Assembly: GCA_943370125.1 (NCBI GenBank) | Contig: CALRPR020000008.1 | Span: 3,826 to 67,825, forward strand | Source: Bosea thiooxidans | Lineage (GTDB): Bacteria > Pseudomonadota > Alphaproteobacteria > Acetobacterales > Acetobacteraceae | Direction of reading: 5' to 3' | DNA length: 64,000 bases | Shown here: piece by piece, positions 967 to 5,834 of the stretch | Numbering within the stretch: position 1 is the first letter of the stretch | How the letters are laid out: each line of letters opens with the position of its first letter | Notes under the pieces: model-generated | Seen by the model: the letters and a program-made list of their open reading frames with translations, nothing else | Database searches by the model: none | What the model was told of the DNA's origin: nothing | Position numbers and translations under genes: made by a program

Positions 967-1803
967 ATGATGGGTATCTTTCGGCGCGGCATTTTGCCGA
1001 TGTTGCTCGCGGCTGTTGCGCTGCCGGCCATGGCGCAGGAACGCAGCATTACCGTTGCTTCCACCACCAGCACGGAACAATCCGGCCTGTTCGGCCATGT
1101 CCTGCCGATCTTCACGCGCGAAACCGGCATTGCCGTGCGCGTGGTGGCTTTGGGCACGGGCCAGGCCTTGGATGTGGGCCGGCGCGGCGATGCGGATATT
1201 GTCTTTGTGCATGATCGTGCGGCGGAAGAACGCTTTGTTGCGGAAGGTTTTGGCGGACCGCGGCGGCATGTGATGTTCAATGATTTTGTGATCACCGGCC
1301 CCACCGCCGACCCTGCGCGCATCGCCGGGCTCGGCGATACGGCTGAAGCGCTACGCCGCATCGCCGCCGCGCGCGCACCCTTCATCAGCCGTGGTGATCG
1401 CAGCGGTACCCATGCGGCGGAGCTTCGCTTGTGGCAATTGGCCGGCGTGGACCCCGCCACCGGGCGCGGCCAATGGTATCGCGAAGTGGGGCAAGGCATG
1501 GGTCCGGCGCTGAATACCGCCGCCGCCCAGAGTGCCTATATTCTGGCCGATCGCGGCACCTGGCTGAGCTTCCGCAATCGGCAGGATCAGCGGATTTTGA
1601 TTGAAGGCGATACGCGGCTGTTCAATCAATATGGCGTCATGCTGGTGAACGCCCAGCGCCATGCGCATGTGAAGGCGGCGGATGGGCAGCGCTTCATTGA
1701 TTGGCTACTTTCATCCGCTGGTCAGGCCGCGATTGCTTCCTATCGTATCAATGGAGAACAGCTTTTCTTCCCCAATGCGGATAAGCCTGAGCCGGTTTCG
1801 TGA
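967..1803 (+). CDS. tupA: Tungstate ABC transporter substrate-binding protein
   Basis: Signal peptide, ASTTSTEQSGL (TupA TTS motif), GTGQAL, FISRGDRSGTH, LFNQYGV; AAGGAA upstream of ATG 967. Confidence 0.9.
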   Translation: MMGIFRRGILPMLLAAVALPAMAQERSITVASTTSTEQSGLFGHVLPIFTRETGIAVRVVALGTGQALDVGRRGDADIVFVHDRAAEERFVAEGFGGPRRHVMFNDFVITGPTADPARIAGLGDTAEALRRIAAARAPFISRGDRSGTHAAELRLWQLAGVDPATGRGQWYREVGQGMGPALNTAAAQSAYILADRGTWLSFRNRQDQRILIEGDTRLFNQYGVMLVNAQRHAHVKAADGQRFIDWLLSSAGQAAIASYRINGEQLFFPNADKPEPVS

Positions 1804-1810
1804 AGCTGTG

Positions 1811-2140
1811 TTAGGTGACTGCCACGCGCGCTTCAGTGCGCGCCTGGCGGCCCTTTTCATCGGTCCAGATGAATTCGAAATGGCTCGGCTTTTCAATCCG
1901 CACGAAAAATACGTGATATGGGTTGGTCGCGGTGCCATTCTGGAAATCGGCAGCAAATAGCGTTTCACCATTCAGCCGCACCATCAGCCGTGTCAGCATA
2001 TCGCGCGGCAAGGCGCGGCCGGCTTCATGGCGCAGCCCCGTTTCCATCGGGTGTTCGATCAGGGTGCGGATTTCAATCACCTCACCCACGCGGGCGCTAC
2101 GCGGGATGCGAATGCGGGGCTGGGATGGCAAAGCGCTCAT
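1811..2140 (-). CDS. soxZ: SoxZ-family sulfur-carrier subunit
   Basis: IEHPMETGLR and NPY motifs, WTDEKG; start overlaps soxY stop (ATGA). Confidence 0.85.
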   Translation of the reverse strand: MSALPSQPRIRIPRSARVGEVIEIRTLIEHPMETGLRHEAGRALPRDMLTRLMVRLNGETLFAADFQNGTATNPYHVFFVRIEKPSHFEFIWTDEKGRQARTEARVAVT

Positions 2141-2562
2141 GACAGGCACCCCCCGGCGCCAACACGCATTTCCGCGCTGGCACGCATGACGCGGCCGGTA
2201 CTGGTTTCCGCCAAAACGATCAGACGTTGATCTTCAGCCAGGCGAATGCGCGTTTGCACTTCGGCGCGGGCGAGCAACGGCGTCAGCCGAAAGGTCGCCA
2301 CGCCCGGTGTGGGATTGCGGGAGGCAAAAACATGAATGGCAGTGATGTGATCCTGCTGCGTCATTGGGCTTTCCACCACAATGCCAAGCGGCACTTGCCC
2401 GCCATTTTCGGCAAGTGTGGGCACGCGGAGCAGAATGCCGCCATCGGTCACGGGCTTGTCGCCGATAGCTTCGCGGATGGTGGTGGACAGCGCATCATCC
2501 GCCCGCGCCGCAGCGGCGAAGGGCAGCGCCAGAAGCGCGAGGCAGGTCCTTCGAGCGATCAT
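2137..2562 (-). CDS. soxY: SoxY-family sulfur carrier with non-canonical C-terminus (VGAGGCLS)
   Basis: Twin-Arg leader IARRTCL, PTLAENGGQVP, NPTP, TRIRLA, C-terminal GGC; GGAGG upstream. Confidence 0.82.
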   Translation of the reverse strand: MIARRTCLALLALPFAAAARADDALSTTIREAIGDKPVTDGGILLRVPTLAENGGQVPLGIVVESPMTQQDHITAIHVFASRNPTPGVATFRLTPLLARAEVQTRIRLAEDQRLIVLAETSTGRVMRASAEMRVGAGGCLS

Positions 2563-2755
2563 CATCACCTCCAAACCACGCCGCCGGGCTTGGTGGCGCA
2601 GCAGGTTTTCTTAAGGGCTAGGCGGCGCAGCGCCTTGTTGCGGCTTGATATGGCGTCCGCATCTTTCAGGCACAAGTGAGATAATTTAGTGCTATCAGGG
2701 GATCAAGCAGAACAAAGGGCTTGCTGCGCCGGCTTTGAAATTTGGAAAATATTTC

Positions 2756-3904
2756 TCAGCGATCCAGGCGAAAAAGCGGGCGCAGACGCAGCCCCACCCA
2801 ATTGCCGGCGAGGCCCGGCAGGATCCAAAGCCAGCCATGCAGGCTGCCGGAAGCAATCCCCGCCACATAGGCGCTGATATTGCAGCCCGAGGCCATGACC
2901 GCGCCATAGCCGAGCAAAAGCCCCCCGATGACCGAGGCGCAAACATGCCGCCAAGGCAGGCGCCATGTGGGGCTAAAGCGCGCCGCAATGGCGGCCGCGA
3001 AAAACGCACCGAGCATCAGGCCGAAATTCATTACGCTGCTGCGCTCCGCAAGCACAGGGCGAAGGAAGGCTTCCGTGCGCGTCGGGTCTTCCCAAAAGGC
3101 CCAGAAGGCGGGTTCATCCCAGCCGAATTCGGCAATGATGCGCGAACCCCAGAGCGGGAAGGATGCCGTGATGACCCAAGGCCGCCCTGCTGCCCAAAGC
3201 GTCAGGATATTGAGCGCGGCGAGGATGATGGCGGCCATGGCCCAGGACCAGCGCCGTGATGCGTCTGGCGATGGCACGTTGAAGATTGGCTCAACGCGGC
3301 CATGGCGGCGTTGTTCGATCACGCGCGATCCCAGCGCCACGCAAAGAAAAATCGCCAAGCTGCCAAGCAGCGCGGGCCAAAGCCCAATCAGCTCCGGCAG
3401 GGTTGTGGCGGAAAGCGTTGGCAGATCCGCCCATCTTTCGGAATCATAAGCCGCGATGGTGGCGCCGGTGATGAAAAAGATCAGCGTCAGGAGCATGCGC
3501 GCATTGCCACCGCCCGCAGTATAGAGCGTGCCGGAAGCGCAGCCACCGCCCAATTGCATGCCAATGCCAAAGATGAAGGCGCCGATGACAACCGCGACCC
3601 CTGCGGGAAACACAATGCCACGCACCGGCGCGCCGGCGAGTGTGCCGACCTGAATGGCAGGCAGCATGATGATGACCAGAATGCCAAGCATGAGCATTTG
3701 CGCACGCAGCCCCGCGCCGCGCCCATCCGCCAGCGCCTCACGAAAACCGCCGGCAAAGCTGAAGGAACCGCGATAAAGCGTATAGCCCAGCGCCGCGCCA
3801 AGCGCCCAAAGCAGCGCGTGATTGCCGCCGTATTGCAGCGCAAGCCCAAGCGCACCGATCAGCAGGAGCAATGCCGCGATGATGGCTGGCAGGGCTTGGG
3901 GCAA
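2756..3904 (-). CDS. YeeE/YedE-family (TsuA-like) sulfur-compound transporter
   Basis: Multi-TM protein with both family motifs GMQLGGGCASGTL and GAVMASGCNISA. Confidence 0.88.
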   Translation of the reverse strand: MPQALPAIIAALLLLIGALGLALQYGGNHALLWALGAALGYTLYRGSFSFAGGFREALADGRGAGLRAQMLMLGILVIIMLPAIQVGTLAGAPVRGIVFPAGVAVVIGAFIFGIGMQLGGGCASGTLYTAGGGNARMLLTLIFFITGATIAAYDSERWADLPTLSATTLPELIGLWPALLGSLAIFLCVALGSRVIEQRRHGRVEPIFNVPSPDASRRWSWAMAAIILAALNILTLWAAGRPWVITASFPLWGSRIIAEFGWDEPAFWAFWEDPTRTEAFLRPVLAERSSVMNFGLMLGAFFAAAIAARFSPTWRLPWRHVCASVIGGLLLGYGAVMASGCNISAYVAGIASGSLHGWLWILPGLAGNWVGLRLRPLFRLDR

Positions 3905-3922
3905 GGCATTGGGCCTTTCGCG

Positions 3923-4519
3923 CTAGAGAATGAAAACGGGAATGAGTGAGGCCACTAATGCCAAGGCCATAGCGTAGTTGAAAAGCCGAAAAGCGCGATC
4001 GGAGGTAAGCAGCCTGCCAATCGCGACCCCAAAGCCGCACCAGAGCGCTGAGGAGATGATGCCGGTGACCACAAAGGCCCCCGCGATACGCGCTGCCTCA
4101 GACCAGACAGGCGCCTCGGGCACGGTATAGGCTGCAAGTGCGCCCACCCCCATGATCCAGGCCTTGGGATTGACCCATTGAAAACCCGCCGCTTCGAAGA
4201 AACTGATGGGCTTCGTGGTGGCTGCGCCCTTACCGCGCTCGGCTGTTGCGATGCGCCAGGCCAGATACACCATGTAGGCAGCGCCGACATATTTGAGTGC
4301 CAGATGCAGCCAAGGCAGCGCGGAGAAAACCGTGCCAAGCCCAAGCCCAATCGCAAGTACCATAGCCGGAAAACCAACAATAATGCCAAGCATATGCGGC
4401 AAGGCGCGGCGAAAGCCGAAATTGGCGCCAGAAGCCGTGAGCATGGCGTTATTCGGGCCGGGCGTGACGCTTGTGGTAAAGGCAAAACCAAGCAGCGCCC
4501 AAAGCAGCGGGTCATTCAA
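3923..4519 (-). CDS. LysE-family translocator (EamB/YfiK-like)
   Basis: SVTPGPNN, GFRRALPHMLG, FQWVNPKAW motifs; about 6 hydrophobic segments. Confidence 0.88.
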   Translation of the reverse strand: MNDPLLWALLGFAFTTSVTPGPNNAMLTASGANFGFRRALPHMLGIIVGFPAMVLAIGLGLGTVFSALPWLHLALKYVGAAYMVYLAWRIATAERGKGAATTKPISFFEAAGFQWVNPKAWIMGVGALAAYTVPEAPVWSEAARIAGAFVVTGIISSALWCGFGVAIGRLLTSDRAFRLFNYAMALALVASLIPVFIL

Positions 4520-4679
4520 TGCAGGGGTCCTTGTGGCATTGATTAGGATCCATTCGCCCTAACAGGCCCAGAATGTTTTGACAAAGAATGGGGTTACCAG
4601 CCCTTCCCACGCGCGGTCTGGACGCGCGCGCCAAGCTGTATCACGCTACACGCAACGCTAGCCTTGTTGGAGACGCCCC

Positions 4680-5834
4680 ATGGGTTCCTTGCTTTTCTCG
4701 CCGCTCACCATTCGCGGTGTGACGATTCCCAATCGCGTGGTGATGCCGCCACTTTGCCAATATTCGGCGATCGAAGGTTTGGCGAATGATTGGCATATGG
4801 TGCAGCTTGGTCGCTTCGCCGTGGGTGGCTTTGGGTTGATTTTCACCGAAGTCACAAGCGTGATGCGCGAAGGGCGCATCACCCATGGTGATCTTGGGCT
4901 TTGGTCCGATGCGCATATTGAGCCTGTGCAGCGGCTTGCGCGTTTCATCAAGGCGCAGGGCGCGGTGCCGGCGATGCAGCTTGGCCATGCAGGGCGCAAG
5001 GGTTCTTCGCAGCGCGCCTTTGAAGGCAATGGGCCGCTTGGTGCGCCGGAAATTGCGATTGGCGAAAAGCCCTGGCCGCTGGTGGGGCCGACAGCAACGG
5101 CCATTGGCGAAGGCCATGTGCAGCCCGAAGCGCTCACCAAGGAAGGCATGGCCGATATTCGCGAAGCTTTCGCCACCGCCACGCGGCGCGCACTCGCTGC
5201 CGGGTATGAGGCGATTGAGGTGCATTGCGCGCATGGCTATCTGCTGCATCAATTCCTCTCGCCACTCAGCAATACACGCAATGATGAATATGGCGGTGAC
5301 CTTGCCGGGCGCATGCGCTTCCCGCTTGAGATTGTGCGTGCGGTGCGCGAAGCCTGGCCGGAGAACCTGCCATTATTCGTGCGCATTTCCGCGGTGGATG
5401 GTGCTGATGGTGGCTGGGAAATGTCTGATAGTGTTGCTTACGCGCGCGAATGCCAAAAGCTTGGCGTTGATGTGATGGATTGTTCATCAGGCGGGATTGG
5501 CGGCAGCGCTACCGGCAGCAAACGCGTGCCGCGTGGTTATGGTTTTCAGATTCCCTATGCCGCGCAAATCCGCCGAGAGCTTGGCATGAAATCCATGGCG
5601 GTTGGGCTGATTATCGGCCCGCAACAGGCCGAAGCGGCTTTGGCTGCGGGTGATGCTGACCTGATCGCGGTTGGGCGCGAAGGCATGAACAACCCGAATT
5701 GGCCTTTGCATGCGCGCGCCGTGCTGGAACCCGGCACAACCGAGGAAGTTTTCGGCTGCTGGCCGCCGCAACATGGCTGGTGGATGGAAAAGCGTGGCGC
5801 GGTGATGAATGCACTCGGCACACCGCCGGCGTGA
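4680..5834 (+). CDS. NADH:flavin oxidoreductase (Old Yellow Enzyme, YqjM/XenA class)
   Basis: NRVVMPPLCQYSA, QLGHAGRKGS, EVHCAHGYLLHQFLSP, NTRNDEYGG, AVGREGMNNPNW. Confidence 0.92.
   Translation: MGSLLFSPLTIRGVTIPNRVVMPPLCQYSAIEGLANDWHMVQLGRFAVGGFGLIFTEVTSVMREGRITHGDLGLWSDAHIEPVQRLARFIKAQGAVPAMQLGHAGRKGSSQRAFEGNGPLGAPEIAIGEKPWPLVGPTATAIGEGHVQPEALTKEGMADIREAFATATRRALAAGYEAIEVHCAHGYLLHQFLSPLSNTRNDEYGGDLAGRMRFPLEIVRAVREAWPENLPLFVRISAVDGADGGWEMSDSVAYARECQKLGVDVMDCSSGGIGGSATGSKRVPRGYGFQIPYAAQIRRELGMKSMAVGLIIGPQQAEAALAAGDADLIAVGREGMNNPNWPLHARAVLEPGTTEEVFGCWPPQHGWWMEKRGAVMNALGTPPA

Follow-up and report, generated by a model that had tools for sequence, protein, structure and literature searches.

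A conserved yeeE–soxY–soxZ cluster in Acetobacteraceae: a likely route for capturing and importing sulfur without Sox enzymes

In bacterial sulfur metabolism, it is a recognized gap in knowledge how sulfane sulfur formed in the periplasm gets across the inner membrane (PMC11582611, PMC9371685). We have analysed a 64 000-nucleotide stretch of DNA, which we call the window, from assembly GCA_943370125.1 (deposited as Bosea thiooxidans; contig CALRPR020000008.1), in which a gene for a YeeE-like membrane protein is followed by genes for a SoxY-like sulfur carrier and for SoxZ. We consider this run together with its counterparts in other Acetobacteraceae. Characterized TsuA/YeeE members transport free thiosulfate; in TsuA the cysteines lie from outside to inside in the order C293, C91 and C22, and YeeD is a cytoplasmic acceptor that docks at the third of these, its own cysteine being contacted by C22 (PMC11073785). 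SoxT1A and SoxT1B of Hyphomicrobium denitrificans are YeeE/YedE-family proteins that are genetically tied to periplasmic SoxYZ, and for SoxT1 a hand-off of sulfur from SoxY to such a protein is a published proposal (Li et al., 2024; PMC11582611). In that proposal, sulfane sulfur on the SoxY cysteine would travel via the channel cysteines into the cytoplasm, and a thiol–disulfide oxidoreductase was suggested as releasing the sulfur from SoxYZ (PMC11582611). In Cupriavidus, yeeE and yedE are induced when SoxYZ-bound sulfane sulfur accumulates, which lends the hand-off indirect support (PMC9959259). Conjugates of the form SoxY(S)n are real and competent carrier species, and sulfide reacts with the SoxY cysteine in its unmodified state only if an oxidative step intervenes (PMC5336275).

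The locus in the window resembles these systems in part. The conserved unit consists of five genes, yeeE, a cytochrome c gene, fccB, soxY and soxZ, in which fccB encodes the flavoprotein of a flavocytochrome c sulfide dehydrogenase (FCSD), and the window holds a reduced, three-gene form of it. We regard it as reasonably likely that yeeE–soxYZ is the reduced form of an Acetobacteraceae cluster for extracellular sulfide capture and sulfur import that operates without Sox enzymes. The features of the run are as follows.

3923..4519, minus strand: LysE/RhtB-family translocator, 198 residues (PF01810, 54 bits)
2756..3904, minus strand: YeeE/YedE-family (Sulf_transp) membrane protein of the two-cysteine subfamily, 382 residues, TTG start (PF04143, 214 bits)
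2566..2755: yeeE–soxY spacer, 190 bp from the yeeE stop to the soxY ATG
2137..2565, minus strand: SoxY-like sulfur carrier, 142 residues, C-terminus GAGGCLS (PF13501, 106 bits)
1811..2140, minus strand: SoxZ, 109 residues, without a signal peptide (PF08770, 79 bits)

The window had earlier been interpreted from its letters and open reading frames (the sequence-only reading), and the four consecutive minus-strand genes described there, with gaps of 18 and 190 bp, are confirmed by the open reading frames and Pfam. The shorter gap (3905–3922) runs from the lysE stop to the TTG start of yeeE. The start of soxZ and the stop of soxY overlap as ATGA, which implies translational coupling, and SoxZ would be exported jointly with SoxY, by analogy with canonical SoxYZ. 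All four proteins are under purifying selection, with dN/dS values of 0.13 for YeeE, 0.09 for SoxY, 0.07 for SoxZ and 0.12 for LysE, measured against 17–22 species-level relatives at a dS of about 0.35–0.5. Base composition over the region is unremarkable, and a promoter and terminator scan of 1600–4800 gave nothing above shuffled expectation in the spacer or upstream of lysE. The absence of YeeD, also remarked on previously, is borne out: there is no TusA- or YeeD-like open reading frame in the cluster, and the two TusA-family genes (PF01206) of the genome are found on contigs C26 and C85 instead.

From a survey of one genome per species, which yielded 101 relatives, we kept the best 80 loci, all of which are from Acetobacteraceae; the 71 with enough upstream DNA to show yeeE are referred to as informative. 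Among these best 80 of 101, a YeeE-like gene is co-oriented with soxZ and with a soxY whose product ends in GGCL[S/T] in every informative locus (71/71), soxZ lies directly after soxY throughout (80/80), and genes for cytochrome c and/or FccB are present in the same cluster in 55. The order yeeE–cytochrome c–fccB–soxY–soxZ is seen at 43 loci, and in most loci the yeeE–soxY interval is about 1.7 kb and codes for a cytochrome c of about 100 residues and a flavoprotein of about 425. A further eight loci show fccB–soxYZ with the position of yeeE off the contig. At four others (L069, L072, L081 and L084) yeeE–soxYZ is followed downstream by the cytochrome c gene and, in three, by fccB; the contig of L069 stops after the cytochrome c gene. 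The three genes yeeE–soxYZ stand alone at 22 loci of the window's clade and at two loci (L040 and L068) of a second lineage, and one locus of the window's clade (L018), which has the same spacer as the window, shows soxYZ only, on a contig too short for yeeE.

The four loci with cytochrome c downstream of soxYZ indicate that the association outlived a rearrangement of gene order. Since the adjacency of yeeE, soxY and soxZ recurs in all of the informative loci and persists through two gene orders, it is far beyond chance. The sequence-only reading had grouped lysE with these three genes as one module; the gene neighbourhood of GGCLS-type soxY upholds the yeeE–soxYZ part of that grouping and not the lysE part, the latter being confined to close relatives. 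The conserved third partner is FccAB rather than LysE, given its presence in the cluster in 55 loci, and it had been overlooked. The flanks of the cluster differ between genera. In Roseomonas fluvialis (L086:3863–4896) genes for DsbB and a COQ7-like protein lie directly upstream of yeeE and co-oriented with it, an arrangement that is not seen in the other annotated locus, L088.

The cluster flavoprotein carries FCSD_central and FCSD-flav_bind domains and matches 5N1T, 1FCD and 3VRD over its full length with E values of 1e-123 to 1e-132. NCBIfam is without an FCSD equivalog, so the identity rests on the Pfam and PDB matches, by which we take the protein to be a true FCSD flavoprotein. In this respect the relatives resemble the FccAB/SoxEF proteins of Allochromatium vinosum (1FCD) and Thioalkalivibrio (5N1T), their partner likewise consisting of a full-length FCSD flavoprotein and a small cytochrome c, and SoxF is already known as an accessory to SoxYZ-based systems. 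The window differs in that its cluster is without FccAB and in that the copy retained by the genome on contig C15 falls in another clade, of SoxF type.

The loss of fccAB from the window's lineage has left a clear trace. Homology to the five-gene relatives L013, L026, L028 and L033 ends at 2746, 10 nt past the yeeE stop, and restarts at 2567. The 178-bp spacer between these points (2568–2745) occupies the place of the cytochrome c–fccB segment of the five-gene relatives. It is homologous among 23 three-gene loci, and it has no match in the five-gene loci, including their cytochrome c–fccB region, when searched by blastn with short words; it is the scar of a deletion or replacement of cytochrome c and fccB, and its sequence may be a remnant or a foreign insert. 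In the concatenated YeeE–SoxY–SoxZ tree, three five-gene members are basal in the window's clade and the three-gene forms are nested within it with 95% support, L026 being the sole exception. Such a pattern fits a single loss of fccAB followed by some recombination. Of the 22 three-gene loci in this clade, 21 have undamaged open reading frames. One three-gene relative (L012:7001–7426) carries a premature stop in soxY with loss of the carrier arm; the gene is a pseudogene, or else the metagenome-assembled genome has been misassembled there.

The SoxY protein belongs to a subfamily for which 638 homologues were collected, and nearly all of the 120 best have the C-terminus GGCL[S/T] and not GGCGG. 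Residues R5, R6, G138, G139 and C140 are invariant, a twin-arginine (Tat) signal peptide is present and the carrier cysteine aligns with that in the solved structures 4UWQ and 2OX5. Like the canonical SoxYZ of Paracoccus pantotrophus (2OX5), the pair comprises SoxY and SoxZ domains encoded by overlapping genes, has a Tat signal on SoxY alone and places the carrier cysteine after GG at the C-terminus. Unlike it, the arm reads GGCL[S/T], and the equivalog cut-offs are not reached: SoxY scores 95.5 bits against TIGR04488 (cut-off 125) and SoxZ 74.1 bits against TIGR04490 (cut-off 76). The model for the paralogue with an AACIE arm gives SoxY 116.8 bits, again under its cut-off of 172. The genetic setting is also different, with FccAB and YeeE encoded alongside in place of SoxAX, SoxB or SoxCD. 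In three genomes that possess SoxB (G005, G027 and G065) the GGCL-type protein coexists with a second SoxY encoded beside soxB.

The AlphaFold model of the YeeE-like protein (pLDDT 87) has the YeeE fold, with TM scores of 0.70/0.81 to 6LEO, and Foldseek matched it to 6LEO and 8J4C (TM 0.65–0.81, E 1e-12). The fold is thus shared with the TsuA/YeeE–TsuB/YeeD systems of E. coli and Spirochaeta thermophila (6LEO, 8K1R), as are the GGCASG and GCN motifs with the first two cysteines and an equivalent of R28. The proteins are, however, only 23% identical, and the scores against the NCBIfam TsuA models NF041049 (55 bits, cut-off 645) and NF052577 (75 bits, cut-off 400) fall far below what those families require. 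Cys341 and Cys122, invariant in 68 of 68 YeeE-like sequences, align with the first and second, periplasm-side cysteines of the S. thermophila protein (StYeeE; C293 and C91, respectively). The third site, C22 in StYeeE, is Ser49 here and is serine or glycine, never cysteine, in the same 68 sequences, and T129 and G132 stand in the alignment where StYeeE has R98 and E101, which contact YeeD. Loss of the third cysteine and of R98/E101 is consistent with there being no dedicated YeeD, and none adjoins the gene. We rejected the idea that the third cysteine was lost as an adaptation to SoxYZ, the wider and mostly stand-alone subfamily having the same loss.

A further feature that sets this protein apart from TsuA/YeeE is an insertion of about 45 residues (242–287), conserved in the YeeE-like subfamily and rich in invariant Trp, Pro and Arg (for example GRPW, WE.PTR and LRP), which has no counterpart in StYeeE. 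The model is confident over this segment except at residues 272–281, and the insertion could be a docking or gating element. With respect to SoxT, the comparison is mixed. Both are tied to SoxYZ, and the mechanism that we propose is the same in outline; SoxT proteins have 330–350 residues and three conserved cysteines, by description (PMC11582611), whereas the protein in the window has 382 residues and two. The soxT genes accompany soxSR, TusA or shdr genes in organisms with SoxXAB (PMC11582611), whereas here the channel gene is directly by soxYZ, and in relatives by fccAB too, with neither a regulator nor a TusA gene adjoining it, and is usually found where SoxB is lacking.

Prediction of a YeeE–SoxZ–SoxY complex gave a score of 0.77, which reflects the SoxY–SoxZ pair alone since a control with YeeE replaced scored 0.76. 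Among YeeE-like proteins we found no Rosetta-stone fusion with SoxY, SoxZ or FccB. Fusions of other kinds do occur: P0128 joins Sulf_transp to a magnetochrome, a PDZ and two Nitro_FeMo-Co domains, P0132 is built likewise minus the magnetochrome, P0234 has an N-terminal rhodanese domain before Sulf_transp and another protein carries a GMC-oxidoreductase C-terminal domain.

The genome from which the window derives (G000) is a 3.55-Mb draft in 147 contigs, estimated to be 96% complete, and the relatives nearest to it are labelled as Roseomonas and other Acetobacteraceae. It holds one SoxY gene and one Sulf_transp gene, both of them in the cluster. Neither SoxA nor a SoxC orthologue was found in this genome, and the sole match to SoxB was a 5′-nucleotidase-like protein with 66 bits against a cut-off of 550; in this sense SoxYZ is orphaned from the Sox enzymes. 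The situation is common among carriers, with SoxB lacking in six of the nine genera that have GGCL-type SoxY and, in the remaining three, adjoining a second SoxY that is 45–49% identical to that of the window. In G000 and five further carriers (G005, G027, G065, G102 and G043) the sole full-length Sulf_transp gene adjoins the gene for GGCL-type SoxY.

A cytochrome c and FccB pair is nevertheless kept in G000, on contig C15 (C15:42568–44511; locus L090:6500–8517). We considered whether it was a relocated copy from the cluster and rejected this, as its FccB is a 95%-identical orthologue of soxF in the sox cluster of the congener G005 and is set apart from every one of the 51 cluster FccBs by a branch of length 0.71 with 100% support. 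The G005 sox cluster (locus L092) comprises a second soxY, soxB, a cytochrome c gene, soxF and genes for a SoxC-like molybdoenzyme and a SoxD-like cytochrome c. At the syntenic site in G000 the cytochrome c gene and soxF are all that is left, beside Rrf2 and class-V aminotransferase genes; soxYZ, soxB and soxCD are gone, and a 29-residue relic of soxB (65% identical) survives in the intergenic DNA. The window's lineage sheds sulfur-oxidation genes yet keeps yeeE–soxYZ. G005 itself, with SoxB, SoxCD-like genes and a second SoxY, gave no match to the SoxA model TIGR04484, and its SoxA may be divergent or absent.

Taken together, these observations suggest the following mechanism. A periplasmic flavocytochrome c sulfide dehydrogenase would oxidize sulfide, and the sulfur would be loaded as a persulfide or polysulfide on the C-terminal cysteine of the Tat-exported SoxYZ variant. 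The SoxY arm would then bring this sulfane sulfur to the periplasmic entrance of the YeeE-like channel, where the two invariant central cysteines would move it toward the cytoplasm, the whole relay operating without SoxAX, SoxB or SoxCD. The requirement for an oxidative loader agrees with the inertness of the unmodified SoxY cysteine toward sulfide (PMC5336275). In the window's lineage, SoxY would be loaded by the SoxEF-type FccAB paralogue encoded on C15 or by polysulfide chemistry. The identities of the genes, their conservation, the deletion, the cysteine pattern, the lack of Sox enzymes and the purifying selection are observations; we infer that FccAB loads SoxY and that SoxY hands sulfur to YeeE, and likewise the direction and assimilatory purpose of transport. 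Transfer of sulfur from SoxYZ to YeeE had been suggested in the sequence-only reading and remains the most economical interpretation, the YeeE-like protein and SoxYZ forming a conserved unit. The view that such a combination was undescribed no longer holds, the hand-off concept having been published for SoxT (PMC11582611) and the induction of yeeE and yedE reported (PMC9959259). For a yeeE–fccAB–soxYZ operon without Sox enzymes, a partial literature search found no description. An FCSD-linked SoxYZ–channel cluster of this kind, probably assimilatory, looks like a new variant.

An assimilatory purpose is suggested by what the carriers lack. In G000 neither a protein with an NIR_SIR domain nor CysH was found, and the sole PAPS_reduct match is CysD, encoded next to CysN (C45:1–1890, L091); the organism may lack the means of reducing sulfate as far as sulfide. 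An NIR_SIR domain was likewise not found in G005, the congener, whose genome is 99% complete. Across the family sample the domain is missing in six of nine carriers compared with 21 of 112 non-carriers (Fisher p = 0.004, the related genomes being non-independent), which we take as no more than a hint of reduced sulfur being provided by the cluster for assimilation. As G000 and its congener yielded no sulfite reductase, we propose that the system there probably serves mainly to acquire reduced sulfur; the cluster may additionally remove sulfide.

Several points weigh against this interpretation. The substrate of the channel may be sulfane sulfur, thiosulfate or another anion. The two-cysteine pattern is present in 84 of 91 representatives of the wider subfamily (380–410 residues) and so is not specific to partners of SoxYZ. 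Homologues of the YeeE-like protein at 45–47% identity are encoded singly beside unrelated genes. Proteins at least 49% identical occur in 14 genera of the family sample; in nine they adjoin GGCL-type SoxY, and in the other five the proteins, 49–53% identical, have no adjacent SoxY. The channel therefore does not need SoxYZ, and the dependence is one-sided: GGCL-type SoxYZ is always accompanied by the channel, which for its part also occurs alone. The case for assimilation is a weak one, since nitrite reductases too contain the NIR_SIR domain, since genomes that are related do not count as independent, and since three of the nine carriers do have an NIR_SIR protein. Absences in G000 mean 'not found', the genome being a 96% complete draft. 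Finally, co-transcription would have to extend over the 190-bp spacer, for which the scan of 1600–4800 gave neither promoter nor terminator signal.

These points bear on the strongest alternative, that FccAB and SoxYZ form a periplasmic unit that oxidizes sulfide and holds sulfur while the YeeE-like protein separately transports a small sulfur anion such as thiosulfate, sulfite or polysulfide. That TsuA/YeeE proteins move free thiosulfate (PMC11073785), that relatives at 45–53% identity occur without adjacent SoxYZ and that the two-cysteine pattern is subfamily-wide are all in keeping with separate functions. Against this, the linkage of SoxY with YeeE is found at every informative locus and holds when fccAB has been lost or moved, the genes lie close together and all point the same way, and the three-gene form is under purifying selection in two lineages. 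We consider separate functions unlikely.

The model put forward in the sequence-only reading, in which SoxYZ substitutes for the YeeD of a thiosulfate importer and LysE exports excess cysteine or O-acetylserine in a four-gene module, fares less well, and we think it improbable. The cluster is indeed without YeeD. YeeD, however, is an acceptor on the cytoplasmic face (PMC11073785), whereas SoxYZ carries an RR signal and would be a Tat-exported periplasmic donor, so that the one does not replace the other. For LysE, the 18-bp gap suggests co-transcription, and lysE is probably co-transcribed with yeeE; the protein is under purifying selection, and its best NCBIfam match is the cysteine/O-acetylserine exporter EamB (NF007653). 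The score for this match, 85.5 bits, is nevertheless far under the cut-off of 193. LysE is found only in the close clade, where the proteins are at least 84% identical, and is absent from every locus outside it; in L011, L015 and L016 genes of divergent orientation take its place. Being seen in close relatives only, and with shared gene order, its adjacency is expected by descent. By its distribution, LysE is a clade-specific neighbour that we treat as a recent acquisition, not a conserved member of the module, and the conserved third partner, FccAB, has no place in such a scheme.

It is also conceivable, and in our view very improbable, that what the channel relays from SoxYZ is not bulk sulfur but a sulfur signal, meant for a sulfane-sensing repressor in the cytoplasm. 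SoxT1B of H. denitrificans relays such a signal for SoxR (PMC11582611). In the window and in annotated relatives there is no SoxR/ArsR-type regulator, SoxS or thioredoxin gene beside the cluster; the flanks vary among genera, and the cytoplasm-side cysteine is missing from the channel. That yeeE–soxYZ is a functionless, decaying remnant, as the loss of cluster fccAB, soxB and soxCD, the soxB relic and the truncated soxY of L012 might suggest, is hardly credible and largely refuted by the intact reading frames in 21 of 22 loci, the dN/dS values of 0.07–0.13 and the invariant carrier and channel cysteines.

On the far side of soxZ, the window encodes a TupA-like tungstate-binding protein and an ABC ATPase (167–1803) in genes convergent to soxZ; this order is kept throughout the close clade and not beyond it.

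So far a single model organism, rich in accessory genes, has supplied the evidence for YeeE-like SoxT proteins. The finding that soxYZ and a YeeE-like gene share a cluster in over 70 species-level genomes, mostly in the absence of Sox enzymes, provides strong comparative support for a hand-off from carrier to channel, and the two lineages reduced to three genes offer a simple system in which to test it. We suggest, tentatively and with less conviction than for the mechanism itself, that the path from FccAB through GGCL[S/T]-type SoxYZ to the two-cysteine channel is the main sulfur route in those Acetobacteraceae that are without sulfite reductase. If so, SoxYZ would here be a carrier for nutrient capture rather than a dissimilatory one, and the form in the window would represent a minimal natural hand-off system. 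As the lineages concerned are often without sulfite reductase, these freshwater bacteria may depend on sulfide or polysulfide as a sulfur source. Some of them come from Microcystis-derived genome bins, and such a dependence would have a bearing on sulfur cross-feeding in blooms (PMC11089705).

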